A DNA stretch of 48,490 bases from Lambdavirus PDP110P1: sequence record OZ035751.1. One strand, given 5' to 3'. The translations under genes were made by a program, and so were the position numbers. Positions 516 to 30,945 of the stretch are shown one piece after another; position 1 is the first letter of the stretch; every line of letters starts with the position of its first letter. A model generated the notes under the pieces. That model made no database searches. It was not told the DNA's origin and was given only the letters and a program-made list of their open reading frames with translations.

Positions 516-516
516 T

Positions 517-3714: not shown

Positions 3715-4465
3715 CGCTGGCGTCGAAGCATGGTACCGCCGACAGCTTGATAAGCAGGTGCAGGAAATGCAGGCATCTGTTGTCTACTGGCTGTCGGCAA
3801 ACTATCGGGCCAGCGGCGCGGCTGTCGCCATGGATGCATCGCCTGCAGTGATGATGCGGAATGCCATGCAGAAACTGGCTAAGCGCTGGACGCGGCGGTT
3901 TGATGACATGGCGCAAAAGCTGGCCGACAGATTCGCTAACGACGCCATGAAAAACGCGGATGCGTCACTGGCCACAGCCTTCAAAGATGCGGGGTTTACT
4001 GTCGAGTTCAAGATGACCTCGCAGATGAATAACGCTCTTCAGGCGACCATCGCCGAGAACGTCGGCCTTATCCGATCCATCCCCGAGAAGTATTTCACCG
4101 AGGTGGAAGGGCTGGTTATGCGGTCGGTAGCGCGTGGGCGCGACCTGTCCTATCTCACCGATGAACTCCAGAAGCGATACGGGATTACCCGGCGCCGTGC
4201 GGCGTTCATTGCCCGAGATCAGAACAACAAGGCCACCTCAGTCGTTCAGTCTGCGCGACAGCAGGCGCTAGGCATTACCCAGGGTATATGGAAGCACTCC
4301 CATGCAGGTAAGAAGCCTCGCCAGTCCCATGTGAAAGCTAATGGCAGGCTTTTCGACCTCTCGGAGGGGATGCTCATTGATGGCGAGCACATCATGCCAG
4401 GCGAATTACCAAATTGTCGTTGCACCTGGGAGGCTGTCATTCCAGGGCTTTCAAAACAGGATTGA
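3638..4465 (+). CDS. head morphogenesis protein (Mu F / SPP1 gp7-like)
   Basis: 275-aa ORF after portal; true start may be the internal ATG near 3764, since the track start overlaps the portal gene by 77 nt. Confidence 0.55.
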   Translation: MMTSKSKTTTTKRKKQTLTIRAVHPNAGVEAWYRRQLDKQVQEMQASVVYWLSANYRASGAAVAMDASPAVMMRNAMQKLAKRWTRRFDDMAQKLADRFANDAMKNADASLATAFKDAGFTVEFKMTSQMNNALQATIAENVGLIRSIPEKYFTEVEGLVMRSVARGRDLSYLTDELQKRYGITRRRAAFIARDQNNKATSVVQSARQQALGITQGIWKHSHAGKKPRQSHVKANGRLFDLSEGMLIDGEHIMPGELPNCRCTWEAVIPGLSKQD

Positions 4466-5635
<1,170 letters not shown>

Positions 5636-5636
5636 C

Positions 5637-6119
5637 ATGGCAGGTTTTCAGACACGAATTAACCAGTATCCGGCCCCCGGCGTCGAAGGGGCCTTTGCTG
5701 GCACCAACCCTCACGCGACCTATCAGGCCGGCGAGGGAGCTCTGGTTGCTGGCGAGGACGGCCTGACTGTCGGCCGCTTCGCCTGGGACGTTGACGGTGT
5801 GGCTTCCAATGCCGGTAGCGGTGTTCCGTCTGGCTTTGTCCATCGTGACGGTCAGGCCTCGATCACCATCTGGCTGGGCCAGGCATCCATGCTTATCCAG
5901 CCCGGACGCGAAATCACCCTGATGGTTGCCGGTGACTTCTGGGCCAAAACGTCAACCGCTGCCACCCGCGGGCAGAAGGTTTTTGCATCCCTGACCACCG
6001 GTGAGGTGCAAGTCGCCGCAGCCGGCGCGACCGTGGCCGGTTTTATCGAGACCGCATTCTATGCCGCAAGCGATTGTGACGCTGGCGAGCTGGTCAAAAT
6101 CAGCACCTGGAGCAAGTAA
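5637..6119 (+). CDS. putative head structural/decoration protein
   Basis: 160-aa Gly/Ala-rich ORF immediately upstream of the major capsid gene. Confidence 0.4.
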
Positions 6120-7156
6120 TGAACGAATTTCAGCGACACTACGCCGCAGCCAGCGGGAAATATGGCATTGTGCTGCCCGGCGCGAAGGACTACCTGAAGC
6201 CGGAGTTTGCGGAGAATTTCGCGCTGGCGATGGATGCCCAGCCGCAAATGGTCACTGCGAATAACGCCGGCATCCCGGCCTACTTCACTAACTACGTCGA
6301 TCCGGAACTTATCCGCGTTCTCGTAACGCCGATGAAGGCCGCAGAGATTATCGGTGAAGTGAAAAAAGGCGACTGGACCACGCTGACCTCGCAGTTCCCG
6401 ATCGTCGAGTCGACTGGTGAAACCAGCGCTTACGGCGACTTCAACAACAACGGCATGACGTCTGCCAACGTCAACTGGGTACCGCGCCAGTCGTTCCATT
6501 ATCAGACTCACACCCGCTGGGGTGAGCGCGAGCTGGACATGTATGGCGCCGGGCGTATCGGCTATGCCGCCGAACTCAACGTGGCCTCTGCGCTTGTGCT
6601 GAACAAGTTCCAGAACAAGTCCTACTTCTACGGCATCGCCGGGCTGGAAAACTACGGTCTGCTCAACGATCCGTCTCTGAGCGCTTCGGTTACTCCGGCG
6701 GCGACTGGTTCCGGCGGTGGCGTTACCTGGGCAACGAAAGACGGGCAGGCTGTATATGACGACATTTCCGGTCGCCTCTATAAGCAGCTGGTATCTCAGA
6801 CCAAAGGCCTCGTAGAGCGTACCGATCGCATGGTGCTCGGCATGTCGCCGGAAATGGAAGTCAACCTGACCAAGACGAACCAGTACAACGTGAACGTCAC
6901 CGATCAGCTGAAGAAAAACTTCCCGAACATGCGTATCGAAACCGCTGTTGAATACAGCACCGCCTCAGGCGAGCTGGTGCAACTGATTGTTGAGCGTCTG
7001 GGTGAGCAGGACACCGCTTACGCAGCATTCACCGAGAAGATGCGCGCGCACGCTGTCGTGGTAGAAGAGTCTTCCTGGCGGCAGAAAAAATCCGGTGGCA
7101 CCTGGGGTGCAATCATTCGTCAACCGCTGGGCATCGCCAGCATGATCGGGGTGTAA
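6119..7156 (+). CDS. major capsid protein (putative)
   Basis: 345 aa; position in head module; ATGA overlap with upstream gene. Confidence 0.6.
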
Positions 7157-7157
7157 C

Positions 7158-7484
7158 ATGGCCGAAACAGTAACTGTAGGATGCAAACTGCCGAACGGCC
7201 TGATCCTGGAGCAGGGCGAGTACAAAGTGGAGCTTAACGGCTCCAACTCCTCTATCGTTGTCGGCGGCTACGGCCTGACCGAAAACGTGGACAAGGAAGC
7301 CTTTGAGGCGTGGCTGGCCGTACATGCTGATCAGCCCTATGTTCGCAAAGAGCTGGTGTTTGCCCAAGCGAAAACCAGCAGCGCCCAGGCGAAAGCGAAT
7401 GAAAACGCTTCGGAGAAAACCGGTCTGGAAGGTCTGGATCAGAACAACCCGGCCCCGGGCGTTGAGAAGGCGGACAAAAAATAA
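7158..7484 (+). CDS. hypothetical head-associated protein
   Basis: 108-aa ORF tightly packed after capsid gene. Confidence 0.4.
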
Positions 7485-7927
7485 TGGCGATCGTTGTCTT
7501 TGATGTTGCCGCATTTCGTGAGCGTTATCCGGAGTTCGATGCCGTAAGTAATACGCTACTTAATGCGTACTTCACGGAGGCAACGATTTATCTGAATAAC
7601 ACGGACAGCAGCCCGGTAAAAGATATCTCTATCCGGGCTCTTTTCCTGAACATGCTGGTTGCGCACATTGCGGCGCTGAATTCAGGCGTAAACGGCGAAA
7701 AGGCTTCTGGTCTGGTTGGCCGTGTGGCAAGCGCATCGGAGGGGTCAGTGTCAGTATCAGCTGACGCAGGGCCCTCAAGCGAAAACTCCTGGTGGTATAA
7801 GCAGACTACTTACGGGTCAGCTTACTGGGAGGCCACAAAGCCTTACAGGACTGGTTTTTATGTCCCGGGCTCATCCCCTTCAATGTACCCGGGCCATTAT
7901 AATCGTCGCTCATTCATCCGGAGGTAG
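7484..7927 (+). CDS. putative head-tail adaptor protein
   Basis: 147-aa ORF, start overlaps upstream stop; role from gene order. Confidence 0.35.
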
Positions 7928-7929
7928 CT

Positions 7930-8493
7930 ATGGATGGAATGTCAGGCGGCGATAAGCTTATGGAGCACCTGCAGTCTATCGCAAAGGGTCTGTCCTCTGG
8001 CGATGATTTGAAGGTGGGTTTCCTTGAGGGGGCTAAGTACCCAGACGGGACGCCGGTAGCACTTGTGGCAGCCACCAACGAATTTGGCGGCACTGTAAAA
8101 ATCCCGGCGCATACCCGGGATTTGAACTTTTACGTTCGCCGTGACGGCGTTTCGCGCTTCGCAAAGCCATCAAAGGCCAATTTCGCGAAGTCAGTAATGA
8201 TACCCGAGCATATCGTTACGATCCCATCCCGGCCGTACTTCAGGAAGACCATTTCTGAACATGGTCCGGAGTGGGGCGGAGAGCTCGGGAAACTCATGAA
8301 GGCAAACGATTTTGACGCCCGCAAAAGCCTGGCGCTGATGGGGGAGCGGATCAAGGGGCAGATTCAGTCGTCAATCATCGCCTTTTCTGAGCCGCCGAAC
8401 GCAAAAAGCACGGTCGACAAAAAAGGGTTTAATGACCCGTTAATAGACTCGGCCCACATGCTGAACTCGGTCGACTACGAGGTGAAAGAGTGA
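7930..8493 (+). CDS. putative head completion/neck protein
   Basis: 187-aa ORF in head-tail joining region. Confidence 0.35.
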   Translation: MDGMSGGDKLMEHLQSIAKGLSSGDDLKVGFLEGAKYPDGTPVALVAATNEFGGTVKIPAHTRDLNFYVRRDGVSRFAKPSKANFAKSVMIPEHIVTIPSRPYFRKTISEHGPEWGGELGKLMKANDFDARKSLALMGERIKGQIQSSIIAFSEPPNAKSTVDKKGFNDPLIDSAHMLNSVDYEVKE

Positions 8494-8858
8494 ATCTTCA
8501 TTCCATAGTGCGAGGCGCCATTAGTGCGGTTAATCCTCGCGTCGAGGCGCAGATTTACCGCTCGATCGGACCAATCAAAAACCCGGATTACTCGACCTCT
8601 CCAGGTTTCGCGCCGCCGGTAACGATGATGGTGCAAAAGCAGGCGCTGAGTCAGGCTGATATCAGGCACATGGATAACATGAACATCCAGGGTGTGCTGG
8701 TCAGTATCTGGACGGATGGCAACTGGTGTGGGATTAACAGGGAGCGGCAGCAGGGCGGCGATAAGTTCGTTATCGGCGATGAAACATGGCTGGTTGTGGA
8801 TGTGCCTGAAATCTGGCCGGACTGGACGAGGGTTATCGCATGTCAACAATTGACGTAG
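8490..8858 (+). CDS. putative neck protein
   Basis: 122-aa ORF, ATGA-type overlap with neighbour. Confidence 0.35.
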   Translation: MNLHSIVRGAISAVNPRVEAQIYRSIGPIKNPDYSTSPGFAPPVTMMVQKQALSQADIRHMDNMNIQGVLVSIWTDGNWCGINRERQQGGDKFVIGDETWLVVDVPEIWPDWTRVIACQQLT

Positions 8859-9391
8859 GCCTGCAGGTCACTGAAAGCGATCTGTTTAAGGCGACTGGCG
8901 ATTTCCTTTCTGTCCTCTTCCCGGATGCAGAGATCACGCAGACTCAGCAAAATCAGACCCCCATGCCGAAAGGCGGTTTCATTACCATGACTCCGCTTTT
9001 TCTGACTGACCTCTCAACCAGTGCTGTCAATTACGAGTATGACGGTGTGAGTGATTACGGGCGGGCAGAACTTCGCCGCGTTGATGAATGGCAATGTCAG
9101 CTCGATTTCTACGGAGATCAGGCACAAAACAATGCCACCATCTTTTCGCGCATCGCCCGCTCCGAATTCGCATGTACCTGGTTCAGGGAAAACGCGAATG
9201 TCCTGGTTCCGATTTATTCCGGCCCCCCGCGGCAAACCTCGATGATCAACGGCGAGAAGCAGTGGGAATCCCGCTGGACGCTTGAATTCCACGCAAACCC
9301 GCTGATTGTCGTCAGCGTTCCTCAGCAGTTTATGACAGGCGCAGATGTGATATCGCAGCCAGTCGACGTGAGATTTCCTCCGGAGAAATAA
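8840..9391 (+). CDS. putative tail completion protein
   Basis: 183-aa ORF preceding the sheath-like gene. Confidence 0.35.
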   Translation: MSTIDVGLQVTESDLFKATGDFLSVLFPDAEITQTQQNQTPMPKGGFITMTPLFLTDLSTSAVNYEYDGVSDYGRAELRRVDEWQCQLDFYGDQAQNNATIFSRIARSEFACTWFRENANVLVPIYSGPPRQTSMINGEKQWESRWTLEFHANPLIVVSVPQQFMTGADVISQPVDVRFPPEK

Positions 9392-9394
9392 TAA

Positions 9395-10876
9395 ATGGCA
9401 ATTTCGCTATCAAAAATCGCCCAGATGCTTCCCGGCGTACTGAAGGCGACAGGGACAGCTATTGATCTCAATGGCCTGTTCCTGACCGACAGCGCATACG
9501 CGCCGGTTGGTGCAGTACCCTCATTTTCCAGTGCGGATGAGGTAAAGGCGTACTTCGGCAGCGCGTCGATTGAGTACACCGCCGCGGTGCTGTATTTCGC
9601 CGCATTCACCGGTAAAACACAGATGCCTGGCAAGCTGTATTTTAGCCGATTCAATACCGCAGCAGTGGCGGCATTCCTTCGTTCCGGATCGCACGCAGCG
9701 ACCACGCTGGCACAGCTCAAGTTGCTTTCTGGTACGTTGACTCTGACAGTTGACGGCACGGAGGAGACTTCTGCGGCTATCAACCTCAGCGGCGCCACCA
9801 GTTTTGATAATGCGGCAGAGCTGATTGAAACCGGCATTGGCTCCTCGGTTGTAGTGACCTGGGATAGCGTGCTGAAGAAATTCATCATCACCTCTGCCAC
9901 CACGGGCGTGGATAGCACCATTACCTTTGCCGATGAAGGTACGCTTGCTACGGGTCTGAAACTGACCGAAGCGACCGGCGCGGTGATCTCTCAGGGTGCG
10001 GCGCCGGCAGTGGTTGACGATATCTTTACTGCCATTCTGGCCAAAGAGCAGGACTGGGTAACATTCTCCACGACGTTCGCTGTCACCAAAGACCAGGCTA
10101 ATGCGTTTGCGCTCTGGACAAACAGCCAGAACCACCGCTTTGCCTATGTCCCATGGGACGCATCAGGAACGGCAATCGTGGCGGGCAGCTCGAATGCACT
10201 GGTGTACGACATCATCAACACCTACGCCTATAACGACACCTGCCCGGTGTATGGTTACCCGAACCACGCAGCAAACGCGATGGGGTTTGTGGCTGCGCTG
10301 AACTTCACGCAGGCCAATGGTCGCTGTTCGCTGAATGGTCGTCAGGTGTCCGGCCTGCTGCCGATGATCAGTAACGATACTGATTACGAGGCGGCTAAGG
10401 CCAACGGCTATAACTTCTACGGCAACTATGCCTCGAATGCGGTCGAAACCAACCAGTGGGCGCCCGGCTCTATTACCGGTGATTACGCTTGGCTTGACGC
10501 CTGGGCGGGTCAGGTATGGGTAAATGCTCAGCTTCAGGCGGCTCTTGTTGCGCTGTTCCAGCAGGCGAGCAATCTGCCCTTCGCAGCAGCCGGGAAAGCT
10601 CGTATTGAGTCGTGCATGAAGCCGACCATTGAGCAATTCAGGGCGTGGGGTGGCATGACGGCAGGAACCGATCTTGACCAGTCGCAGATCGACCAGATTA
10701 ACGCCATCGCTGGTGTCGATGTTACGGATTCGCTTATGGCTGAAGGTTATTACGTCTACATCGGCCCGTTCACCGCGGCAATGCGCGCCGCGCGTACCAA
10801 GCCAACGGTTTACTTCTGGTACACCGACGGCGGGATCATCCAGGGTATCACCGTTAACAGCACGGAGGTGCAGTAA
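9395..10876 (+). CDS. tail sheath protein (putative)
   Basis: 493 aa followed by a 147-aa tube-like gene, chaperone and tape measure: the gene order of a contractile tail. Confidence 0.5.
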   Translation: MAISLSKIAQMLPGVLKATGTAIDLNGLFLTDSAYAPVGAVPSFSSADEVKAYFGSASIEYTAAVLYFAAFTGKTQMPGKLYFSRFNTAAVAAFLRSGSHAATTLAQLKLLSGTLTLTVDGTEETSAAINLSGATSFDNAAELIETGIGSSVVVTWDSVLKKFIITSATTGVDSTITFADEGTLATGLKLTEATGAVISQGAAPAVVDDIFTAILAKEQDWVTFSTTFAVTKDQANAFALWTNSQNHRFAYVPWDASGTAIVAGSSNALVYDIINTYAYNDTCPVYGYPNHAANAMGFVAALNFTQANGRCSLNGRQVSGLLPMISNDTDYEAAKANGYNFYGNYASNAVETNQWAPGSITGDYAWLDAWAGQVWVNAQLQAALVALFQQASNLPFAAAGKARIESCMKPTIEQFRAWGGMTAGTDLDQSQIDQINAIAGVDVTDSLMAEGYYVYIGPFTAAMRAARTKPTVYFWYTDGGIIQGITVNSTEVQ

Positions 10877-11319
10877 TGGCCGGTCAAAATATTACGTCGG
10901 CAGACGCCATCATTGAGCTGGTCATTGCTGAGCTCTACCCATCCGGGTTTAACCTGGAACAGTTCGAAGCGCAAAACATCTTCGAAATGGGTGATACCGA
11001 TATGGCAGAGTACCAGCGTACTGCTGACGGTAAACTGCTGGGTGGTTTTGTTTATGGTGATCTGCCGTGGACTTTCCATCTGGCGGCATCATCCCCGTCG
11101 ATTAAGTACATCGACAACTGGCAAACCACGCAGATGACCACGCGGTCTGTGCTGCGTGTCAATGGGACTGTGATCCTGCCGTCGCTGGGTAAAAAGTACA
11201 TCATGACTAACGGTATCCTGCAGCGCGCACGCCGCATGCCGTCTGCCGGCCGTGTTCTTCAGCCGGTAACTGGACTCATCCAGTGGGAAACTGTCACCCC
11301 GGCAGACTACTCAGCATAA
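10876..11319 (+). CDS. tail tube protein (putative)
   Basis: 147 aa directly after sheath-like gene. Confidence 0.5.
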   Translation: MAGQNITSADAIIELVIAELYPSGFNLEQFEAQNIFEMGDTDMAEYQRTADGKLLGGFVYGDLPWTFHLAASSPSIKYIDNWQTTQMTTRSVLRVNGTVILPSLGKKYIMTNGILQRARRMPSAGRVLQPVTGLIQWETVTPADYSA

Positions 11320-11353
11320 AAAAAATCAGCCCGGCTAAGTCCGGGCTTTTTTA
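11318..11353 (+). terminator. rho-independent terminator
   Basis: hairpin AGCCCGG-CTAAGT-CCGGGCT followed by TTTTTTAT, directly after the tube gene stop. Confidence 0.7.
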
Positions 11354-11501
11354 TACCCGCAATACCCCGCGCTTCACACGCGCACATCACAACACAGAAC
11401 CTTTCAGGATGACCCTTGAGGATACCGGTTTGGCTATCGGTGCCTTTCTGTGGGCCGGATTCCTGTGTGACAAGGTTCATCACTAAAAGGTAATTACCGA
11501 G

Positions 11502-12257
11502 ATGTCTAATATCATCCCCATGAATTACGATGACCGTTCATTTCCTTTTACTGCTGACTGCTGGTTCAATGCCACGGTTGCCGCAAAGCATCACGGCAAG
11601 CTACCAAAGGACTGGCTAAAGACTGAGGCGACAAAAATTTATATCGCCGAATTGGCTGAGGAGCTTGGAATTGCTGGCTCCGGCGTAAAAGAGGATTTTT
11701 CTCCCCTTTTAGTCAGAGTGGAGAAAGGGCGAAACGGCGGGACCTGGCTTCATCCGGAGTTGGCGGTGGAGTTCGCCCGCTGGTTGTCAGTAAAATTCGC
11801 CCGAGCCTGTGACCGACACATTAAAAATCTGCTACTGAGTAAAAACTTCCAGCTCACTGAAGATCAAATTGTCGGCCTGATGGTCTGTCAGCAACCCACC
11901 TCTTGGGAAAAACGATTTAAAGACCCGTTCTACCAGGCGCTGTCGAAAATGTCCGGCCTTCCTTACTTTGGTCATGTCGGTGGTTGCCCGGCGCTGTTCG
12001 GTCAGATCACCGCTCGATGGGTGTACGGTGTCGCACTTCCCGATTATGTCTATCAGGCAGCAAAACAAGCAGCGGGCGACAGCAGAGAGAAGATTCACCA
12101 GCACCTCAAGCCTGATGCGCTGGATAAGGTCGAGCAGCAATTGATCGCCGTTACCAATATCGCGAATTGCAGCATTGACCAGAAGGACTTCGAGGCCCGT
12201 TGCATGGCCGCGTTTCCCGTTAAGGGTCAGATGAAACTGCTGTATGCGGCGGCGTGA
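11502..12257 (+). CDS. KilA-N domain protein (moron)
   Basis: 251 aa; N-terminal KilA-N-like region (…GTWLHPELAVEFARWL…); sits between two terminators inside the tail module. Confidence 0.6.
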   Translation: MSNIIPMNYDDRSFPFTADCWFNATVAAKHHGKLPKDWLKTEATKIYIAELAEELGIAGSGVKEDFSPLLVRVEKGRNGGTWLHPELAVEFARWLSVKFARACDRHIKNLLLSKNFQLTEDQIVGLMVCQQPTSWEKRFKDPFYQALSKMSGLPYFGHVGGCPALFGQITARWVYGVALPDYVYQAAKQAAGDSREKIHQHLKPDALDKVEQQLIAVTNIANCSIDQKDFEARCMAAFPVKGQMKLLYAAA

Positions 12258-12514
12258 CCATGAATAACCGAATCGTTGAGTGTGCCTCCAGAGCGGGGCG
12301 CGACTTCTCAGAGTTCATGACTGGCGAGAAGAACATGATGGAGGCGCTGCGTTCTGCTGAAGAGTTCACCGAGCAGTTACGCATTCACGGCTGCGTTAAT
12401 CACCATTTCGTCAATTTCATGATGATGAAAGCGATCATGAAGGTATTTGACGACTTGCGCCGAGAGGAGTTGCGGGAAGAACGACGACGCAAACGTGAAG
12501 AGAAGAAGAAATGA
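12254..12514 (+). CDS. hypothetical protein with basic/acidic C-terminal tail
   Basis: 86-aa ORF translationally coupled to the KilA-N gene; C-terminus EELREERRRKREEKKK. Confidence 0.45.
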   Translation: MTMNNRIVECASRAGRDFSEFMTGEKNMMEALRSAEEFTEQLRIHGCVNHHFVNFMMMKAIMKVFDDLRREELREERRRKREEKKK

Positions 12515-12537
12515 GCCCACCACGGTGGGCTTTTATC
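12513..12537 (+). terminator. rho-independent terminator
   Basis: GCCCAC-CACG-GTGGGC followed by TTTTAT. Confidence 0.65.
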
Positions 12538-12589
12538 CTCCCCCGCATCCCTGCTAATCTGTCGAAAACAAACCAACGGGGATAGGGAT

Positions 12590-12970
12590 ATGAAAAAGGT
12601 TCTATTGGTTGCAGCAATAGCGGTTGTACTTGCCGGTTGTGCTTCTGGCGGCAATAAGTCGATTGAGCAAGAAACGCAGATTGGCGTTCAGAGTAAAATA
12701 ATCAAAGGAAAGACGACGAAGCAAGAAGTTAAGGCTGCATATGGAGATCCAGCTGGGGTATCAATCTCCAGTGATGGGAAAGAACAGTGGCACTATGTTT
12801 TCACAAACACACAGATCAGCGGGAAAGCATTTATTCCCATCTATGGACTATTTGATAACGGCGCTACTACCAACATGAAGCAGCTTATAATCGTGTTTAA
12901 GGGCGATATTGTAGATAATTACTTATTTAATAATTCAAATACAGAAGTTAAATCAGGCCTCCTAAACTAA
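12590..12970 (+). CDS. outer-membrane lipoprotein, BamE/SmpA-OmlA-like (moron)
   Basis: signal peptide with lipobox LAG-C; core IKGKTTKQEVKAAYGDPAGVSISSDGKEQWHYVF resembles the BamE/OmlA fold motif; visibly AT-rich; own terminator. Confidence 0.6.
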   Translation: MKKVLLVAAIAVVLAGCASGGNKSIEQETQIGVQSKIIKGKTTKQEVKAAYGDPAGVSISSDGKEQWHYVFTNTQISGKAFIPIYGLFDNGATTNMKQLIIVFKGDIVDNYLFNNSNTEVKSGLLN

Positions 12971-12988
12971 CCAACTTCCATGTTATAG

Positions 12989-13014
12989 ACCTCGCTCCGG
13001 CGGGGTTTTTTATT
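12989..13014 (+). terminator. rho-independent terminator
   Basis: CCTCGC-TCCG-GCGGGG followed by TTTTTTAT. Confidence 0.7.
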
Positions 13015-13041
13015 GCCAGATAACTCATTCAGGAAACAAAA

Positions 13042-13518
13042 ATGGCTCGTAAAAGCATCGTATTCACGGTTGAAGCAGATAACCGTGACAAGGGTAAGCA
13101 GTTCAAAATCACCGAAATGCCGGCGAGAAAGGCCGAAGAGTGGGCGATCCGCCTGGCGTGTGCCGTGATTGGCGCCGGCGTTACCGTTCCCGACAATATG
13201 ATGATGGCCATCGGTGCTGCGGTGGCGCCGGCCCCAGCCGAGGATAACGCAGAAGCTCGCGAGCTGTACGAAAGCGTGATGGCCAGCGGTATGGCCGGAC
13301 TCGCTCAGTGGGGTATCACTTCACTGGCTAAAGTTCCGTTCGCACAGTCAAAGCCTCTGCTTGATGAGTTGCTTGGCTGCGTGAAATTCCTCGGCGGTAA
13401 TGGTATCGAAACAGCGCTTGTTGACGAAGGTCAGATCGAAGAAATCAGCACCTGGTCGCGCCTGAAAATCGAAGCCTTCAAACTCCATATCGCTTTTGTA
13501 GCAGCCACCGCAAGTTAG
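13042..13518 (+). CDS. tail assembly chaperone (putative)
   Basis: 158 aa immediately upstream of tape measure gene; RBS AGGAAA; a -1 frame stays open to the tape measure start. Confidence 0.45.
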   Translation: MARKSIVFTVEADNRDKGKQFKITEMPARKAEEWAIRLACAVIGAGVTVPDNMMMAIGAAVAPAPAEDNAEARELYESVMASGMAGLAQWGITSLAKVPFAQSKPLLDELLGCVKFLGGNGIETALVDEGQIEEISTWSRLKIEAFKLHIAFVAATAS

Positions 13519-13716
13519 AAATTCCCCTATCCGTCCCGGAAGATTCAGATCGCGGCTTCATACAGTATGCGAATGTACCGCGCACCATCGCCGCGGTGAT
13601 CTCCGGGAAAATGGCGACACTCCACGAACTGGACACGGTATACAGCGTTCAGGATATGTGGTGGCTGATAGAAATAATGACCGTGGATAACACCAACAGA
13701 GCCATAGCAGCGGAGA

Positions 13717-15681
13717 GTGATCATGGCAGCAACGGTAATTGACGCCCTCCTGGTTACGCTGGGCCTTGATACTTCTCAGTTCCGCAAAGGCCAGCAGGAA
13801 GTCAGTGATGACCTGAAAAAGCAGCGCGAAGATGCCAAAAATACCGCCAAGGAAATGGCGGAGCAGGGCAAGAAAGCCGCTTCGTTCTTCAGCAGCATAA
13901 AGACGGAATTGCTGGCACTAACTGGTGTTACTGTCACTGCCGGCGGCCTGATAAGCTTTGTGAAAAGCACCACTTCCGGCCTGATGGATTTATCGATCCA
14001 GTCGAAAGTGCTGGGGCTGTCAGCCCGTGAGCTTGATGGTTGGTCGAAGTCAGCAGAGGCAGCAGGGAGTTCAGCTGAGAAGATAAGCGCTTCTCTGCAG
14101 GGGTTTCAGGGCGCTATACAGGGCGCGAGGGTCGGCGATTACAGTAGCTCTATTTTTGGTGGTCTGGCGCAATTAAATGCTCTGACGGGCCAGAATTTTG
14201 ACGTGTGGGGACAGGATGCCAGTTCCCTGGCCAAAACATCCCTTGATGCGCTACGGAAAATCAGCGATCCAAACCTTCGCCGGCAGGTCGGGTTAAGTCT
14301 TGGATTTGATGATGCAACCTTGCAGCGTAATCAGGAAGGGAAATTCCTGCCTGACGTTGATCGCCTGACTAAAAGCTCCGGCATTACAGACGCCTCAACC
14401 AAAGGCGCAAAGGAAGTTACAGCTGCATGGGCGGAGCTGGGACAAAATCTTGACACGGTAAAAAACCAGATTTACGTGGGTTTGATACCAACCATTCGCG
14501 ATCTGAATGATTTCCTCATAGAGTGGTCGTCTGGTAACGCAAAATCCTCTTCATTCTTCAAAGAGCTGAAGCGGGACATTAACGACATTACTGGTATTGA
14601 CCTTGGTAGCTGGACGCTATCAGGCGATCTGCGCAACCTCAAAGATAACTTTTCCATGCTCGGAAAAGTGCTCAATCACCTGGGTAACGCTTTAAACGAG
14701 CTCAATAACGGCAACTTCTCCAAGGCTGCCGATGAGTTTAAAAAGGCGTGGTATGGCACTGAAGACGGAAAGCCTACCGGTAATGATGCGCTGCCCGGAG
14801 TGACCAAGGCAGCCGAGCAGGCGCTGAAGAAAAACGGCGGAACACTGGATTTTAAACCTGATCAGGACTCTGCGTATCTAAGCCCGCAGCAGCAGGCAAC
14901 GCAGAAAATGCTGGATGCAGTTAAGTTTCAGCCGCTTCCTGAACAGCGCAGGCAGCAGCAGGATGAGAGAGACTACTGGGAAAGCACCAAAAATCTCCTT
15001 TCAAAAATCGCTGATGCCCTGATCTCTCCAGCTGGCGCGGCAACAATGCAGCCAGATACCTCGGGATACCAGCCAAACGTCCCGCTTAACGCACAGGCTG
15101 CTCGCCTTGGCGCCAAAGGAAGGGCATTTCTTCAGGCTATGGCTGGCGAATTCGGGGCGCTGGAAGGTAAATATGGACTTCCCGCTGGGCTGCTGTCTTC
15201 GGTGGCTGGTACTGAATCGGGTGGCGACCCGTTCGCAGTATCCCCCAAAGGGGCGAAAGGCCCATTCCAGTTTATGGATGGAACTGCCAGAGACTTGGGT
15301 TTGAAGGGGATGGACGTTTATGACCCCCACAAGTCAGCTGATGCCGCTGCAAGATATTTGCGCTATCTGCTGGATGCTACTGGTGGCGATCTGGAAAAAG
15401 CTCTTGCCTCCTATAACTGGGGGCTCGGAAACGTCCAGAAGAAAGGCATGGACAACCTACCGTCGGAAACTCGCAATTACGTCCCTAAAGTCATGGCCGG
15501 AATGCGCCCCGGCGCCGGGATGGCCGTAGACCGAGCGATGCCCGTGCAGTCCGGTGCGACTTATCAGTTTTATGGCACCAAAATCACCACCCAGGCCCAG
15601 AACGTGGAACAGCTTACCAGCGACATCAAAAAGCACGGCGACAACCGTGTCATGCTTTTGGCTGGCTACTCAGGACAATAA
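13717..15681 (+). CDS. tail tape measure protein with C-terminal lytic transglycosylase (SLT) domain
   Basis: 654 aa; coiled-coil-rich N-terminal part; SLT motif …GTESGGDPFAVSPKGAKGPFQFMDGTARDLG…; ATG at 13723 has the better RBS. Confidence 0.7.
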   Translation: MIMAATVIDALLVTLGLDTSQFRKGQQEVSDDLKKQREDAKNTAKEMAEQGKKAASFFSSIKTELLALTGVTVTAGGLISFVKSTTSGLMDLSIQSKVLGLSARELDGWSKSAEAAGSSAEKISASLQGFQGAIQGARVGDYSSSIFGGLAQLNALTGQNFDVWGQDASSLAKTSLDALRKISDPNLRRQVGLSLGFDDATLQRNQEGKFLPDVDRLTKSSGITDASTKGAKEVTAAWAELGQNLDTVKNQIYVGLIPTIRDLNDFLIEWSSGNAKSSSFFKELKRDINDITGIDLGSWTLSGDLRNLKDNFSMLGKVLNHLGNALNELNNGNFSKAADEFKKAWYGTEDGKPTGNDALPGVTKAAEQALKKNGGTLDFKPDQDSAYLSPQQQATQKMLDAVKFQPLPEQRRQQQDERDYWESTKNLLSKIADALISPAGAATMQPDTSGYQPNVPLNAQAARLGAKGRAFLQAMAGEFGALEGKYGLPAGLLSSVAGTESGGDPFAVSPKGAKGPFQFMDGTARDLGLKGMDVYDPHKSADAAARYLRYLLDATGGDLEKALASYNWGLGNVQKKGMDNLPSETRNYVPKVMAGMRPGAGMAVDRAMPVQSGATYQFYGTKITTQAQNVEQLTSDIKKHGDNRVMLLAGYSGQ

Positions 15682-15684
15682 CTC

Positions 15685-16524
15685 ATGTCGTTTTCTCTGA
15701 ATGTCTCGACAGTGCTATCCGCCATTCAGGGAGGAAGCCTGTTATCCGTCCTTAACAGCGCTCTGTCGCCAACTTACCGGATCACCTATAACACCGTTGA
15801 CGAGTCGCTTTTGACGGCTGCAGCCGGGCAGGAGGTTTTCTCTCCTTCCGGATGGGTTAGCGTTGATCGCTACGGTGATGCGGCGGTGACTAAGGGGCCG
15901 GTAGAAAAGGGCCGGTACACGTCCTACAACAAAGTGAAACAGCCGTCTGAACTGAGGATCATTTTTGCCCTTGAGGGGTGGACGGCTTTTTCCGGGTCAC
16001 TGCCTAACCTGACCAATTTCTCTTTGCTGAGCCGTAACAATTTCATTCAGAAACTGGATGAGATGAAAAACACGGCCAGCACCTACAACATCGAGACGCC
16101 GGACACGGTGTATTACAGCTACGATCTGACCCACTTCGATTATTTTGTGGGGTCATATCGCGGGCAGACGTTGTTGATGGCGAACTGCACTTTCGAGGAG
16201 ATCATGGACGGCGGGGAGGTCATGCTTTCAAATGCTGTTATTGAAGGGCCGCCGACCAGCAACGCAAAAACCAACAATGGCGCCGCAGCATCAACGCAGG
16301 TGATCACCGGGGCAACGAAAGAGGTGACATTGAGCGATGTTAAGAATGCCTGGTCAAGTGCAGATACAACCTTATCAGACGCTCTCCAGACGACCGGGGC
16401 GGGGATTGTATCTAACGTTAACTCGGCGGCCGAGTCGGTCTCTAAGGCGTGGGACAGCTCTTCGACTGCAGTTTCTAAGCAGATAAAAAGCACCGTCTCC
16501 GACTTTCTGGAAAAGGTGATGTGA
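15685..16524 (+). CDS. putative tail/baseplate protein
   Basis: 279-aa ORF directly after tape measure. Confidence 0.4.
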   Translation: MSFSLNVSTVLSAIQGGSLLSVLNSALSPTYRITYNTVDESLLTAAAGQEVFSPSGWVSVDRYGDAAVTKGPVEKGRYTSYNKVKQPSELRIIFALEGWTAFSGSLPNLTNFSLLSRNNFIQKLDEMKNTASTYNIETPDTVYYSYDLTHFDYFVGSYRGQTLLMANCTFEEIMDGGEVMLSNAVIEGPPTSNAKTNNGAAASTQVITGATKEVTLSDVKNAWSSADTTLSDALQTTGAGIVSNVNSAAESVSKAWDSSSTAVSKQIKSTVSDFLEKVM

Positions 16525-16525
16525 C

Positions 16526-16831
16526 ATGCAGGAAATTAGCTTATCACCGTCACTATCCCAAAAGGTCTATGTCACGCTTGGCGGCCAGAACTGCGCGATC
16601 AAGTTACATCAGCGTTCAACCGGGTTTTACGCCGATCTGTATGTCGATGACAAGCCGATATTTCAGGGTGTTCTCTGCCTGAACTGCGTTTACCTGGTTC
16701 GGTATAAATATCTGGGGTTCAGTGGCGATCTGGTTTTCGTTGACTCAAAAGGTACAGCTGATCCCTATTACGACGAAATCGGCACCAGATTCAAGCTGTA
16801 TTATGCGACGAGCAGTGAGGTCGGCAGATGA
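16526..16831 (+). CDS. putative baseplate-associated protein
   Basis: 101-aa ORF in baseplate cluster. Confidence 0.35.
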   Translation: MQEISLSPSLSQKVYVTLGGQNCAIKLHQRSTGFYADLYVDDKPIFQGVLCLNCVYLVRYKYLGFSGDLVFVDSKGTADPYYDEIGTRFKLYYATSSEVGR

Positions 16832-17697
16832 GTTACAAGGAGAGAGAGCTTACCGTATCGTTCACGCTGGCTAACGGTACGTTTGACGGCGGAATTGGTA
16901 ATACGCTGACGGTTAAAGGCTTCAAGTGTGAGGCTGCTATATCTGCCTTTGGCGGCGCTACAGGCACAATGATGGAGCTAAGCCTGTGGGGCCTGTCACT
17001 GGAGAACATGGCCAAGCTGACGACCAACGCGCAAAAAATAATCGCCGCCGAGCAAAATGCTATCGTCGTTTATGCTGGCGACACCCGTGTTTTTTCCGGG
17101 TCAATAACATCAGCCAGGATTAACCTGAACCAGATGCCGGATGCGCCGATTGAGATAACCGCGGCGGCCGCCGGCAGGGAGCGCCTGATCCCCTGTGAGC
17201 CCACATCCATTCGCGGCGATGCGGATGTGGCTGATATGATTCGCGCTCTTGCCTTTAAAGTTGGCCTGAAATTCATCAATGTCGACGTCAAAAGCACCGA
17301 GCGCAACCCGGTGTACAAAGGCAATGCGATAAAGCAGATCATTGAAATAGCAGCTGCGCATAAAATAACGGTAAATATTGATTTTGGCACCGTCACTATT
17401 TACACCGGGAAGAAACCCTCTGACTCTGTCGTTCCATATGTTTCTCCATCAACAGGGCTTATTGGGTATCCGATTTTTTATGACATGGGGATTAACTTTC
17501 GCTGCATTTACTCTCCATCTCTGAAACTGAATACCAAAATCATCCTTGAGACTGACCTGCCGCACGCAAGCGGGGAATGGATTATTCAGGCAGGAACCAC
17601 TCATTATCTTTCCTGTAAAGTTCCCGGTGGTCTGTGGGAAACGTTCGTCGTGGCCGCGCCTGGGTATCTTGTAAAAGGTGATGAAAATGCTAACTAA
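16828..17697 (+). CDS. putative baseplate hub protein
   Basis: 289-aa ORF, overlapping starts and stops with neighbours. Confidence 0.4.
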   Translation: MSYKERELTVSFTLANGTFDGGIGNTLTVKGFKCEAAISAFGGATGTMMELSLWGLSLENMAKLTTNAQKIIAAEQNAIVVYAGDTRVFSGSITSARINLNQMPDAPIEITAAAAGRERLIPCEPTSIRGDADVADMIRALAFKVGLKFINVDVKSTERNPVYKGNAIKQIIEIAAAHKITVNIDFGTVTIYTGKKPSDSVVPYVSPSTGLIGYPIFYDMGINFRCIYSPSLKLNTKIILETDLPHASGEWIIQAGTTHYLSCKVPGGLWETFVVAAPGYLVKGDENAN

Positions 17698-18277
17698 CCA
17701 GACCCCTGAGAGCGTGTCATCACAGGGTAACGCCATATTATCGCTGCTACATTCAGCGCTGAAAGGAATGACGTTTGTTGATATTGTTCTGGTTAGGGAG
17801 GTTGAAGGCGATGTGTTGACCGTTCTCCCCCTGGTTAATGATGTAGACGTTTCAGGCCGGGCCATTGCCAATCAGGACGTTTACCAGATCCCATATCTCA
17901 GACTTCAGGCGGGAAACAGCGCGGTAAAAATGGAGCCAAGGCCTGGAGACATTGGTCTGGTTGTTATCTGCGACAAGGACACCACGAACGTTAGGGAAAC
18001 CAGATCAGAGGGGCCCGCACCAACTCAGCGCCGCCACTCGTATTCCGATGCGATGTACATAACCGCAATAGCCAGCATGAATGGGGAACCTACTGAATTT
18101 GCTGAATTTACTGGAAGTGGCATAAATATAAAAAGCCCGGGCGTGGTTAACATCAATGGCTTGAAAGTCCACTCAGATGGCAAACTTGAGCTTGTCGATG
18201 GCTCTATCGTTGATGGGCATGACCATGGCGGGGTAATATCAGGGGGAAGCCGAACCGATCCTCTGGCGCCGGCATAA
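17678..18277 (+). CDS. putative baseplate spike/assembly protein
   Basis: 199-aa ORF in baseplate cluster. Confidence 0.35.
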   Translation: MMKMLTNQTPESVSSQGNAILSLLHSALKGMTFVDIVLVREVEGDVLTVLPLVNDVDVSGRAIANQDVYQIPYLRLQAGNSAVKMEPRPGDIGLVVICDKDTTNVRETRSEGPAPTQRRHSYSDAMYITAIASMNGEPTEFAEFTGSGINIKSPGVVNINGLKVHSDGKLELVDGSIVDGHDHGGVISGGSRTDPLAPA

Positions 18278-18288
18278 AGGGAATAAAA

Positions 18289-18669
18289 ATGTCGCTCTTA
18301 GTCATAGCTGCTCTGCTTGGATTAATTCCTGCCTTTATCGCTCAAAGTAAGGGGAGGTCATTTGGCGCGTGGTGGTTGTATGGATTCCTTCTTTTCATCG
18401 TCGCCATTATTCATGTTCTTTTCGTTACGCCACACAATACAGCAGGCACCGTTGCCAGTGACTCAATCGGCCCCATGCGAGATTGCCCATATTGTGCAGA
18501 GCCAGTGAAGTATCAGGCCTCAAAATGCAAGCATTGTGGTAGTGAGATAGAACCTATACCGATCCCTGAGCCAAAATATAATGGAACTCAGATAGCCTGG
18601 AGCAGAATTGCAATTTTGATTGGAGGGATTGTGTTGCTGGCTATCATTTCAGGCATCATAGGCAAATAA
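18289..18669 (+). CDS. membrane protein with zinc-ribbon (moron)
   Basis: 126 aa; two N-terminal and one C-terminal hydrophobic helices flanking CPYC…CKHC; followed by a strong terminator. Confidence 0.55.
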   Translation: MSLLVIAALLGLIPAFIAQSKGRSFGAWWLYGFLLFIVAIIHVLFVTPHNTAGTVASDSIGPMRDCPYCAEPVKYQASKCKHCGSEIEPIPIPEPKYNGTQIAWSRIAILIGGIVLLAIISGIIGK

Positions 18670-18693
18670 ACCCGCTAAAAACTCAAAAATAAA

Positions 18694-18719
18694 AACCTCG
18701 CTTCGGCGGGGTTTTTTTA
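18694..18719 (+). terminator. rho-independent terminator
   Basis: CCTCGC-TTCG-GCGGGG followed by TTTTTTTAT; near-identical to the terminator at 12989-13014. Confidence 0.7.
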
Positions 18720-18731
18720 TGGGCGAAATCC

Positions 18732-19088
18732 ATGAAAACAATATCTCTCAAACTTGACCCAGATACCTGGGATCTTGTCCTTGATGAGCTGGGTAATATC
18801 GCCACGGTTGAAAACCCCTACGCCTGCGCTCAGGACGTAGCGACGGCATGCCTGGCTATACGCGGCGAGTGCATTTACGAAAAAGACACCGGCGTTAATT
18901 ACAAAGAGCTGCTTAACGTTAAGGCCAGCACTGGCGCCATGGCGGCCGCGCTTCAGGTTGAAGCGTTGCGGATGAGCTATATCGCGCGAGCTGAGCCGAC
19001 GCTGATTAACAACAGCGATACGCGCCGCACTACCGGCGTTATTGCGATCGTGGATACCAACGGCCTGGATTCCAGCGTCACCCTGTGA
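18732..19088 (+). CDS. putative baseplate protein (gp25/W-like position)
   Basis: 118-aa ORF preceding the J-like baseplate gene. Confidence 0.35.
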   Translation: MKTISLKLDPDTWDLVLDELGNIATVENPYACAQDVATACLAIRGECIYEKDTGVNYKELLNVKASTGAMAAALQVEALRMSYIARAEPTLINNSDTRRTTGVIAIVDTNGLDSSVTL

Positions 19089-19095
19089 GGAAAAA

Positions 19096-20328
19096 ATGAC
19101 GACAATCTCTACGGCGGTACCGGCCGTGACCTTTTCCACCACTGGCCTTGATGTTCCGGATGAGGGAGACATTCTTGCCGGGCGTATAGCAGATATTGGT
19201 TCTGCATTCGGGACGGCGATGAGCACGAACCTCAAGACGCCACAGGGGCAACTGGCTGTCACTGATACTGCAATCATCGCAGACAAGAACGATCAGCTTC
19301 TGGCTATCGTCAACAACATGAACCCGGACTTTTCCTCCGGAAGATTTCAGGATGGCATTGGCAGGATTTACTTCCTCGATCGTATTGCTGCTGCGGGTAC
19401 GGTTGTAACGGCCACATGCTCCGGCGTACCGGGAACGGTTATTCCGGCACAGTCCTATGCAACCGACGATAACGGTTATATGTACGTGTCCCTGGCGGCC
19501 GGAACGATTGGCGCAGACGGGACGGTAAAAATTGAGTTCCAGAACCTGACTACCGGTCCGATAGCTTGCCCCATCGGTACGCTGACAAACATCTATGTCG
19601 CGGTAAGTGGCTGGTCGAGTATCACCAACGAGACCGCGGGTGTACCGGGCTCGAATGTTGAAGGGCGATCTGCATTTGAGTATCGCCGTCGCCAGTCAGT
19701 GGCACGTAACGCCTTCAACACGGCGGCGGCTGTGCGGGCTGCTGTCCTGGAAGTCGACGGGGTGCTTGATGTTTATGTGATCGACAACAAAGAGCCGACT
19801 TCCGTCGAAAAAGGTTCCACGAATTACACACTGCTGGCCAGCTCGATTTATATCGGGGTTTATGGCGGGGCAGTAGCTGAGATTGCAGCGGCCATCAATA
19901 AAAAACTCCCCCCGGGCACCGTTATGAACGGTGACACCACCGGGACCGTGCAGGATACCGAAAATTATGACGCCCCTTATCCGGAGTACACCTACAGGTG
20001 GAAAACGCTGGACGCGGTGAGTGTTCATATCAAGGTGGAATATGAGGAAAATGATGGCCTTCCGTCAGATATCAACGCGCAGATCAGAACGGTCGTCCTG
20101 AATGCCTTTACCGGCGCAGATGGAGGTACCCGGGCGCGTGCCGGCGCGCGAATTTATGGCAGCCGCTATATCGGACCCATTCAGGCGCTCGATGCACAGA
20201 ACATGAACGTTCTTTCTGTCCAGATCTCTCTGAACGGAACCACCTGGTCTAGTGCGCTGACTATGGGGATAGATCAGGAACCGACCCTCGATGCGACAAA
20301 CATCATAACGGAGGCGGTAAGTGAATAA
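19096..20328 (+). CDS. baseplate J-like protein (putative)
   Basis: ~410 aa from ATG 19096 (RBS GAGGAA); track ORF starts earlier at 19042; position before tail fibres. Confidence 0.45.
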   Translation: MTTISTAVPAVTFSTTGLDVPDEGDILAGRIADIGSAFGTAMSTNLKTPQGQLAVTDTAIIADKNDQLLAIVNNMNPDFSSGRFQDGIGRIYFLDRIAAAGTVVTATCSGVPGTVIPAQSYATDDNGYMYVSLAAGTIGADGTVKIEFQNLTTGPIACPIGTLTNIYVAVSGWSSITNETAGVPGSNVEGRSAFEYRRRQSVARNAFNTAAAVRAAVLEVDGVLDVYVIDNKEPTSVEKGSTNYTLLASSIYIGVYGGAVAEIAAAINKKLPPGTVMNGDTTGTVQDTENYDAPYPEYTYRWKTLDAVSVHIKVEYEENDGLPSDINAQIRTVVLNAFTGADGGTRARAGARIYGSRYIGPIQALDAQNMNVLSVQISLNGTTWSSALTMGIDQEPTLDATNIITEAVSE

Positions 20329-20908
20329 TGTCGACTGGACGATCTACGCGCAGTACGTGAACTCAACCAGCCTGCGGTCACTGATTGACACCTTTAACGC
20401 TTCTGTAGCGCCAGAGGACTGGATAGACACGTTCTATGACCTCGTATTCAACATCGAGACCTGTGGTGATTACGGGCTGATGTGCTGGGGTAAAATCGTT
20501 GATGTAGAGCGCTTGCTGACTGTGACGCCATCCCAGCAGTTTCTGGGGTTTGGCGAAGCGACCAGTACCCCGGCAGAACTCACCGACCCGCAACCCTTTA
20601 ACCAGGCACCTTTCTATACCGGCGTACAGGACACGAATACTGTTGTCCTGACCAATGAGGCATACCGCAAGCTGATCATGTGCAAAGCGATGGCGAACAT
20701 CAGCGACTGCACTGTACCGGTCATGAACCGCATGCTGATGTACATGTTCGGCACCAGCGGGCGGGCTTACGTGCGTGACGATGGCAACCATGTCATGAGC
20801 TACGTATTCGAATTCCAGCTTTCCGATTCTGAGCTGGCCATAGTGCAAAGCTCCGGCGCGCTTCCTTCCCCTCCCGGGGTAAAAGTTAACATCGTTCAGG
20901 AGGTCTGA
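20321..20908 (+). CDS. putative baseplate/tail-fibre attachment protein
   Basis: 195-aa ORF between J-like gene and first tail fibre. Confidence 0.35.
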   Translation: MNNVDWTIYAQYVNSTSLRSLIDTFNASVAPEDWIDTFYDLVFNIETCGDYGLMCWGKIVDVERLLTVTPSQQFLGFGEATSTPAELTDPQPFNQAPFYTGVQDTNTVVLTNEAYRKLIMCKAMANISDCTVPVMNRMLMYMFGTSGRAYVRDDGNHVMSYVFEFQLSDSELAIVQSSGALPSPPGVKVNIVQEV

Positions 20909-20909
20909 A

Positions 20910-27017: not shown

Positions 27018-27159
27018 TGGCTTACACTCCTGCACGACCATCGATGTAATCAGCCCACCACTGCATCATCTACCTGCGCTTATCGAGATACTGAGCATGG
27101 TTGTAAATTCAACTAACCCAGTGCATTGACAAAAAATTAGCGCAAGAAGACAAAAAATC

Positions 27160-30935: not shown

Positions 30936-30945
30936 GTGTTACTCC

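Follow-up and report, generated by a model that had tools for sequence, protein, structure and literature searches.

What is a gene for a KilA-N DNA-binding protein doing among the tail genes of a lambdoid phage, and how might it be expressed there? The locus lies in Lambdavirus PDP110P1 (sequence record OZ035751.1); the window analysed here is the whole stretch of 48,490 nt, and all coordinates refer to it. The initial annotation, made from the sequence alone, had read this gene and a small gene behind it as a moron with a candidate promoter just upstream. We favour, with a probability of roughly 0.6, a reading in which the locus is a horizontally exchanged, rha-type cassette of the late operon that is transcribed late and gated at the level of translation. 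The most informative feature of the locus is one that the initial annotation missed, a conserved leader RNA immediately before the first gene. Its elements are the following.

11360–11504, plus strand: conserved structured leader RNA of about 145 nt, the only match in the window to our covariance model R1 (132.4 bits, E 1.4e-26)
11369–11383, plus strand: hairpin P0, GCGC-UUCACAC-GCGC; stem 97.5% paired, three of four pairs changed on both sides
11374–11379, plus strand: P0 loop UCACAC, pairing with the bulge GUGUGA at 11465–11470; all six pairs of this kissing contact covary
11393–11399, plus strand: 5′ strand of helix I (7 bp), CACAGAA, pairing with 11446–11452; 83–88% paired, four of seven pairs changed on both sides
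11400–11404, plus strand: anti-Shine-Dalgarno sequence (anti-SD) CCUUU, pairing with AAAGG at 11486–11490, from the minimum free energy (MFE) fold and pair counts
11406–11428, plus strand: 5′ strands of hairpin A, namely P1b (11406–11412), P2 (11414–11418), P3a (11419–11422) and P3b (11425–11428); 75–92% paired, several pairs changed on both sides
11432–11444, plus strand: apical hairpin P4, GGC-UAUCGGU-GCC, from the MFE fold; 53% paired when scored on the MAFFT alignment, recognisable by eye in divergent lineages, and the weakest element
11446–11452, plus strand: 3′ strand of helix I, UUCUGUG, then a conserved GG(G), from covariation
11455–11484, plus strand: 3′ strands of hairpin A, namely P3b (11455–11458), P3a (11461–11464), the bulge GUGUGA (11465–11470), P2 (11471–11475) and P1b (11477–11484)
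11486–11490, plus strand: Shine-Dalgarno sequence (SD) AAAGG, 11 nt before the AUG and sequestered in the predicted MFE fold

Comparison of related leaders shows this element to be a conserved structured RNA, predicted to occlude its SD. For the main covariation test, 40 leaders were aligned with MAFFT without reference to structure (column identity 54%). Standard pairs filled 85.0% of the cells in the proposed structure, against 34–48% when the partners were slid by one to three columns, and cells changed on both sides numbered 235 as opposed to 21–60. The covariation score was 0.353, compared with at most 0.111 for the slid controls. Both sides had changed in 33 of the 45 pairs, a count that none of 500 shuffles reached, and P1b and P2 were 92% paired. 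When 72 leaders were submitted to RNAalifold, a strongly covarying helix I was returned, differing from the single-sequence fold. The structure is backed by three independent sets of covarying long-range pairs.

The two strands of the contact between the P0 loop and the bulge change in concert across about 16 variants, 14 of them in the 40-leader set. The loop and bulge read, for example, UCACAC/GUGUGA, UCGCAC/GUGCGA, UCUCAC/GUGAGA, UCCCC/GGGGA or UAGCAC/GUGCUA in some leaders, and CCGAAA/UUUCGG, UUCACA/UGUGAA, ACGCCC/GGGCGU or UUCGCG/CGCGAA in others. Complementarity between cognate loops and bulges averaged 5.3 nt, against 3.2 nt for non-cognate combinations, and the observed value was reached in 0 of 10,000 permutations. 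Additionally, G-U cells outnumbered A-C cells by 41 to 11 in the close set of leaders, which favours the plus strand.

The MFE fold of the window's leader (−45.3 kcal/mol) is exactly hairpin A, with the SD paired to CCUUU. In the unconstrained MFE folds of 40 diverse leaders, at least four of about six SD-region columns were paired in 34. The pair itself varies, as in CCUUG/UGAGG (locus L133) and UCCUC/GAGGA (L183). When helix I was forced, the MFE of the window's leader was −38.0 kcal/mol; hairpin A is thus favoured by 7.3 kcal/mol over the best nested fold that contains helix I. Only window values and unconstrained MFEs are used here, as constrained folding on MAFFT columns is unreliable for divergent leaders owing to misalignment.

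Conservation is far higher in the leader than in the genes that follow. BLAST placed it in at least 314 of 50,697 phage records. In the 182 nt before the ATG, positions 11369–11500 share 93% identity with the sequence that precedes “ant” in Shiga-toxin (Stx) phages, where this gene stands between R and Rz. Identity is 87–91% to the sequences preceding sb54 of ST64B, the “regulator” gene of a Lederbergvirus and the Rha gene of POCJ13. R1 also recognised leaders outside its seed, at P22 rha (92 bits, E 5e-19), HK97 (78 bits), SPN3UB (65 bits) and Halopseudomonas (57 bits); the leader also precedes an mEp235 gene. The Halopseudomonas leader keeps the kiss as UGCCC/GGGCA, helix I as CCACGGAG/CUCUGUGG, and the SD GAGGA with the anti-SD UCCUC. 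A degenerate pattern scan of IMG/VR gave 120 loci, which together with the earlier ones make up 43 distinct cores. In a protein-guided scan of one genome per species, divergent leaders were found directly upstream of KilA-N–P63C genes in Erwinia, Pantoea, Cedecea, Photorhabdus, Xenorhabdus, Providencia, Proteus, Morganella and Gilliamella.

At least eight architectures stand behind these leaders: KilA-N; KilA-N with P63C; KilA-N with ORF11CD3; Rha; Rha with ORF11CD3; P22_AR_N with ORF11CD3; HNH_3 with AP2; and HNH. The leader would join the KilA-N, Rha, P22_AR_N, ORF11CD3, P63C and HNH-AP2 families into one co-regulated guild, and that it is common to the guild argues that these gene families do equivalent jobs. 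Although it stands in textbook phages (before P22 rha and in HK97) and before ant in Stx phages, the leader is apparently undescribed. In Rfam 15 no family reached its gathering score for the leader in the window and ten loci. At E values of up to 5 over 11250–12650, the leader gave only chance matches (Trp_leader at the terminator, asX2 and similar), with no C4, c4-a1b1 or sar among them. No published description was found in the literature searched, which covered P63C/KilA-N, the leader sequence, RNA motifs and the mEp phages. In many loci (for example L008, L067, L131 and L158) a short motif, AUUUCACC or AGUAAACC, recurs directly 5′ of P0 after the terminator T-run, and no pairing partner was identified for it.

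The leader is followed by two genes that are flanked by terminators and lie in a slot that varies among sister phages.

11328–11353, plus strand: intrinsic terminator ending the tail-tube-like gene (stem 11328–11347 and a T-run), terminator-like in both orientations in the terminator scan
11502–12257, plus strand: gene for a 251-aa KilA-N–P63C protein (phrog_1136), from its open reading frame (ORF) and profile matches
12260–12514, plus strand: gene for an 84-aa protein (phrog_875, function unassigned; start chosen from the profile match and homologues), a three-helix bundle with a basic C-terminal tail
12514–12536, plus strand: terminator-like G+C hairpin (12514–12531) followed by TTTTATCC, closing the two-gene unit, from scan and sequence
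11384–12995, no strand assigned: variable slot relative to sister phages, holding the leader, the two genes and a lipoprotein gene (12590–12970) with its terminator, from blastn against Klebsiella phage ST15-VIM1phi2.1 (L128)

The N-terminal KilA-N domain claimed for the 251-aa protein was borne out: Pfam KilA-N (PF04383; APSES-like) covers residues 16–110 with E 8e-18 and 64.7 bits against a cut-off of 23.8, and the protein has the APSES/KilA-N three-dimensional fold. With a genuine KilA-N domain, the regulatory role suggested by the initial annotation seems reasonable. The C-terminal half had been left unassigned, but a domain search places Pfam P63C (PF10546) at residues 128–205 (E 2e-11, 44.6 bits, cut-off 26.1). 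The match to phrog_1136 spans residues 1–251 (E 8e-136), and the full architecture is KilA-N plus P63C, a combination found in more than 1000 clusters from Gammaproteobacteria and beyond. These two were the only Pfam domains found in the protein, with no match to Phage_pRha. An NCBIfam search of both proteins was uninformative, and a search of PDB sequences returned no match for the 251-aa protein and only chance calmodulin matches for the small one.

The small gene had been described as an 86-aa partner coupled to the first. A GTG at 12254 does overlap the upstream TGA (12255–12257), but the ATG at 12260, giving 84 aa, is the likelier start, because phrog_875 aligns from residue 3 and the homologues have 83–87 aa. 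The highly charged tail, EELREERRRKREEKKK, is present as described; among homologues this basic C-terminal tail is the variable part of the protein. Residues C8, C45, H48 and H49, in the motifs ECASRAGRDF and GCVNHHF, are invariant or nearly so in the homologue alignment and could form a metal site. The small gene stands downstream of a KilA-N–P63C gene in 22 of 58 loci, which belong chiefly to the HK97-type and the close, Klebsiella-type relatives. Most other genera lack it and have a cassette of one gene and a terminator, and in one locus it follows a KilA-N–ORF11CD3 gene instead. The 84-aa gene is an optional, non-obligate partner. Taken alone, the gene pair is ordinary, the KilA-N–P63C family being already annotated in HK97 and hundreds of prophages.

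Based on the comparison with sister phages, the unit is exchangeable accessory cargo in the tail module and not conserved structural content, because the flanks are about 96% identical and yet the contents of the slot differ. ST15-VIM1phi2.1 is about 96% identical to the window over 408–11384 and 12995–21148, with no match between. It is a lambdoid phage with CI/Cro/CII, a nin region, Q, lysis, terminase, head and tail genes and an integrase; its Q, lysis, head and tail genes all have one orientation. The early region of the window, for its part, is about 96.6% identical to lambda. Neighbours of the gene pair are a DUF3383 sheath-like gene (named from the sister-phage annotation), an E217-gp32-family tube-like gene (10876–11319), the lipoprotein gene (12590–12970) and a tail assembly chaperone gene (13042–13518). 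The slot itself lies between the tube-like and the chaperone gene; it is filled in every relative seen, and its cargo differs. In ST15-VIM1phi2.1 and ST899-OXA48phi17.1 a gene for Rha–ORF11CD3 follows a leader that belongs to a different subtype. KP12 has a KilA-N–P63C gene of only 53% identity followed by an identical small gene, and the sister phages RCIP0114, KpnBHU6 and klb_E likewise have only the flanks in common with the window. Moreover, the unrelated siphovirus ST11-VIM1phi8.1 has a copy of window positions 11327–12593 that is 92% identical and is flanked there by the major-tail gene and the tape-measure gene.

The third cargo gene of the slot (12590–12970, plus strand) encodes a 126-aa lipoprotein with the lipobox LAGC and is followed by a terminator at 12987–13008. 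The protein weakly matches a BamE domain and, in its N-terminal part, equally weakly a PHROG of the Cor superinfection-exclusion protein, and the gene is absent from the sister phages KP12 and ST899.

The initial annotation held that KilA-N genes normally sit in early regions and that a late copy is odd. For this gene class, however, a late-region position is the rule and not an oddity. The structural genes of lambdoid phages form one late operon, transcribed by a Q-modified, terminator-resistant polymerase, and the window's cassette lies in late-operon position on the same strand as the structural genes. Cassettes of this type follow the lysis genes in P22 (rha), HK97, mEp235, ST64B and Stx phages; ST11-VIM1phi8.1 and SPN3UB have theirs between the major-tail gene and the tape-measure gene. 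KilA-N–P63C homologues of about 50% identity come after Rz in HK97, HK022 and mEp phages. In Erwinia and Xenorhabdus loci the gene stands directly upstream of an ORF of about 1000 aa that is tape-measure-like by size and sequence only. The SPN3UB homologue has the major-tail gene on one side and, on the other, an immI-like block (Arc/Arc/Ant) containing a true sar RNA, and the ST11-VIM1phi8.1 cassette adjoins Arc/Arc/Bro-N/“repressor” genes. In both phages (SPN3UB, L210, 4821–7011; ST11-VIM1phi8.1, L003, 6967–9150) the cassette thus neighbours an immI-like block of two Arc-like genes, an Ant/Bro-N gene and a regulator gene within the tail module; the sar RNA of SPN3UB (RF00262, 48 bits) lies 1.2 kb from the leader.

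How would such a cassette be transcribed? The bracketing by terminators described initially holds, with the stem at 11328–11347 and its T-run in front and the hairpin at 12514–12531 with TTTTATCC behind, the latter listed by the scanner in the minus orientation only. A terminator-like hairpin and T-run lie directly upstream of 103 of 126 distinct leaders. The promoter proposed in the initial annotation, TGTGACA-N17-TAATTA (11466–11496), fared differently. A consensus scan of 10800–13200, which a non-canonical promoter could escape, gave no sigma-70-like site. The proposed −35 element is the bulge that covaries with the upstream P0 loop, that is, an RNA-level constraint. The proposed −10 element is not conserved among homologous leaders and sits between the SD and the AUG; therefore, a transcript from that promoter would be without an SD. 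When the leader was inspected by eye, neither a consensus site for LexA, CRP or IHF nor an antisense promoter could be made out convincingly.

Because a terminator stands in front and no promoter was detectable, we infer transcription by antiterminated late polymerase. The cassette, without a promoter of its own, would be reached mainly by late read-through of the upstream terminator, like Q-antiterminated transcription. Its order would be an intrinsic terminator, a leader of about 145 nt, a gene for a DNA-binding effector (here KilA-N–P63C) with the optional 84-aa gene, and a terminator. By occluding the ribosome-binding site, the leader may hold effector translation at a low level or make it conditional. 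Helix I (ON) and the paired SD (OFF) could make up a two-state device, in which helix I can form first during transcription. As the 5′ strand of helix I abuts the anti-SD without a linker and has its partner in the apical loop, helix I should exclude the SD/anti-SD base and P1b. The effector, a member of the KilA-N/Rha/Ant-N guild, would bind DNA in a sequence-specific manner. As reported for rha of P22 and phi80, its over-expression is likely to harm phage growth, and it would act as a regulator or antirepressor-like factor. Since the effectors are diverse, autoregulation is unlikely; a host factor or folding kinetics would be a more plausible trigger, with an IHF-linked pathway, RNase III acting on the long hairpin, and temperature as candidates.

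The closest functional parallel comes from P22 and phi80. PMC4936722, citing Mozola & Friedman (1985) and Henthorn & Friedman (1995), describes rha in these phages as a late-operon gene that IHF regulates and that impairs lytic growth when IHF is mutated. This Rha phenotype, known for P22 and phi80 only, provides the sole functional data for any member of the leader group. Like the window's cassette, P22 rha is an accessory gene of the late operon after a terminator and has the same leader, with loop and bulge CCGCA/UGCGG and helix I CCACCGA/UCGGUGG; a Rha gene also occupies this very slot in the window's sister phages. In contrast, the P22 protein carries Phage_pRha, not KilA-N and P63C, and rha lies between the lysis and terminase genes, not in the tail module. 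The leader offers a concrete, mutable cis-element for asking how rha-type genes stay harmless in lytic growth and why IHF matters.

In P22 (L212, NC_002371, 1500–1650) the annotated start of rha (orf201), at locus position 1576, falls within the structured leader. The leader model puts the SD and AUG at locus position 1645 (ATGAAT...). A protein begun there would have about 179 aa, in line with the other Rha proteins linked to a leader. The annotated start is probably mistaken, and the leader may flag annotation errors of this kind.

A second parallel is the ant or d_ant gene of Stx phages (933W type, Min27, phi24B), between R and Rz. It shares a leader that is 93% identical from P0 to SD, and is likewise a late, small gene with an N-terminal domain of DNA-binding type; unlike the window's gene, it encodes P22_AR_N and ORF11CD3. 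The passages of PMC4426718 on d_ant call it a putative antirepressor, propose its control by the microRNA-size RNA 24B_1 at a site within the gene, and do not mention a leader structure. In these phages the leader may bear on antirepressor expression, and hence on induction and toxin release. The third parallel is the HK97, HK022 and mEp group, which has an orthologous KilA-N–P63C protein (about 51% identity over the full length), a small gene of the phrog_875 type and a leader of the same family (78 bits). There, by contrast, the genes lie after Rz and before HNH/terminase genes, and the leader is of the KP12/HK97 subtype, with the kiss UCUCG/CGAGA and helix I CCAAGAGC/GCUCUUGG.

Several points weigh against our reading. 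The z-score of the single-sequence fold is modest (−1.74). The SD/anti-SD helices (helices 4 and 5) are 75–80% paired and their covariation is limited, because the SD itself is constrained. In the divergent alignment G-U and A-C cells number 102 and 84, so that the strand evidence is not overwhelming. That helix I is sterically incompatible with the SD/anti-SD base is probable from a geometric argument; alternatively, all helices could coexist in a folded-back, two-arm compact clamp on the SD. A local helix II for the ON state was also considered; it was 70% paired, its support was weak, and we do not claim it. The cassette probably has no promoter of its own, as judged from the sigma-70 consensus scan alone. 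For the proteins, the role of effector is suggested solely by domain content and by the leader and slot common to rha and ant genes; Pfam gave no match to antirepressor domains (P22_AR_N, AntA, ANT/KilA-C) in the cassette proteins, and PADLOC none to BstA for either the 251-aa or the 84-aa protein.

A bolder extension of the late, translationally gated cassette is possible, and we put it forward tentatively. The leader may represent an undescribed class of pseudoknotted translational switch for the KilA-N/Rha/Ant-N/HNH-AP2 guild, with helix I as the ON and SD/anti-SD pairing as the OFF state. The kiss and helix I would be phage-specific “addresses”, diversified against cross-regulation between co-resident prophages in cis or, c4-like, in trans, and the leader might be the missing cis-element behind the IHF-deficient de-repression of rha and aborted growth. 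Leaders that sequester an SD include RNA thermometers, translational riboswitches, the leader of the MS2 maturation gene and the fold-back of hok mRNA. As in these, the ribosome-binding site is predicted to pair with an upstream complement, and a competing long-range helix could give two states. The cassette leader differs in being much larger, in having two pseudoknot-type contacts and no block of conserved unpaired bases resembling a ligand pocket, and in being tied to one guild of phage genes.

Could the 5′ domain instead be a regulator in its own right? The c4 antisense RNA of P1/P7 immI is co-transcribed with icd-ant and pairs through two loops, with short exposed sequences that covary between phages, and the sar RNA of P22 controls ant. 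A c4-like, cis-encoded antisense module or processed small RNA, in which the P0 loop and the 5′ strand of helix I act as a specificity regulator, possibly in trans on leaders of co-resident prophages and with an immunity-like diversity of loops, is unlikely in our view. The likeness is considerable: c4 controls antirepressor-type genes at the RNA level, as the leader would here, c4 lies upstream in its target's own transcript, and here two 5′ elements pair antiparallel with two downstream elements of the same transcript, in many specificity variants. However, the leader has no Rfam match to C4, c4-a1b1 or sar. Its covarying contacts lie 16–40 nt upstream of the SD, so that the paired targets leave the SD uncovered, and the SD is instead paired by an anti-SD in cis. 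Processing to a separate small RNA is without support, and simple compensatory drift would explain the variants. Control of antirepressor genes by c4 and sar RNAs is mentioned in PMC12197685.

Six distinct phages have two leaders each (nine loci: L007, L010, L016, L034, L041, L047, L087, L108 and L157). In all six the two copies differ in the P0 loop and bulge, in helix I or in both, although six pairs are too few for statistics. Differing copies in one phage fit a specificity role.

The reading of the initial annotation, a classical moron with its own promoter and an independent transcript (for example in the lysogen) that serves as a regulatory or host-takeover module, is somewhat less probable still. 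By the common definition, a moron is an extra gene that brings a promoter and a terminator of its own and separates genes which adjoin each other in relatives. Insertion relative to sister phages and a downstream terminator are both found here, which is the usual anatomy of a moron, and the adjoining lipoprotein gene is of a kind often expressed from prophages. What survives of the proposal is the inserted accessory cargo in the tail module; the independent transcript is unsupported, as no promoter was found for it by the scan described above, and the conserved element reaches about 140 nt upstream of the AUG, directly after the terminator.

It appears improbable that the KilA-N–P63C protein, alone or together with the 84-aa protein, is made by the prophage for anti-phage defence of the BstA kind or for superinfection exclusion. 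BstA, the abortive-infection protein of prophage BTP1, likewise has an N-terminal KilA-N domain and is prophage-encoded (PMC8585504), and expression of Rha aborts phage growth in IHF mutants, as stated in PMC4936722; the lipoprotein next to the cassette in the slot has its weak Cor-like match. The present protein differs from BstA in its C-terminal domain, which is P63C, in genomic position and in regulation. The sole PADLOC match of the cassette proteins is a weak 28-residue alignment to the candidate family PDC-S22 (E 4e-6). Expression in the lysogen is doubtful for a late-operon cassette behind a terminator with no detectable promoter, and the small partner is optional.

That the leader is only a recombination linker at the DNA level, or a protein operator without RNA structure, is very improbable. 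Mosaic junctions do fall at or in the leader, with homology to Stx phages beginning at 11369, to Salmonella phages at 11343 and to ST11-VIM1phi8.1 at 11327, and the leader is conserved far beyond the downstream genes. Against this, compensatory changes keep pairing across up to about 90 nt, with about 16 loop/bulge variants and several helix variants, and G-U cells exceed A-C cells in the close set; recombination homology or duplex DNA operators predict no compensatory pairing. The two roles are compatible, and the structured leader may also be a crossover point. Least credible of all is a small hydrophobic leader peptide conserved at the protein level (25-codon ORF 11409–11486, plus strand, MTLEDTGLAIGAFLWAGFLCDKVHH), which we reject: an ATG-initiated ORF of 24–27 codons stands at the same place in 9 of 40 leaders, but in 27 of the 40 diverse leaders no ORF reaches 15 codons and the others differ in position, the Min27 frame stops early, type-2 and KP12-type leaders have no ATG, and the substitutions are pairwise-compensatory and not codon-like.

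Beyond the locus, the window looks like a complete mosaic lambdoid genome. Klebsiella phages of the prophage type with a sheath/tube tail match its structural module (408–21148) at about 96% identity, and coliphage lambda, from int to the nin/Q side, matches parts of 27055–46662 (about one third of the query) at about 96.6%. The phage “Wanchaivirus PDP110P2” is 99% identical over about half of 25000–48490. At one genome end, ST15-VIM1phi2.1 carries a retron-type reverse transcriptase gene adjoining a UmuD-like gene (L128, 836–2323), and window positions 25400–25973 match part of that end at 84% identity. In the lambda-like early/integration region, Rfam sRNA-Xcc1 (RF02221) matches the minus strand at 29423–29512 with 65.4 bits against a gathering score of 53 (E 1e-9).

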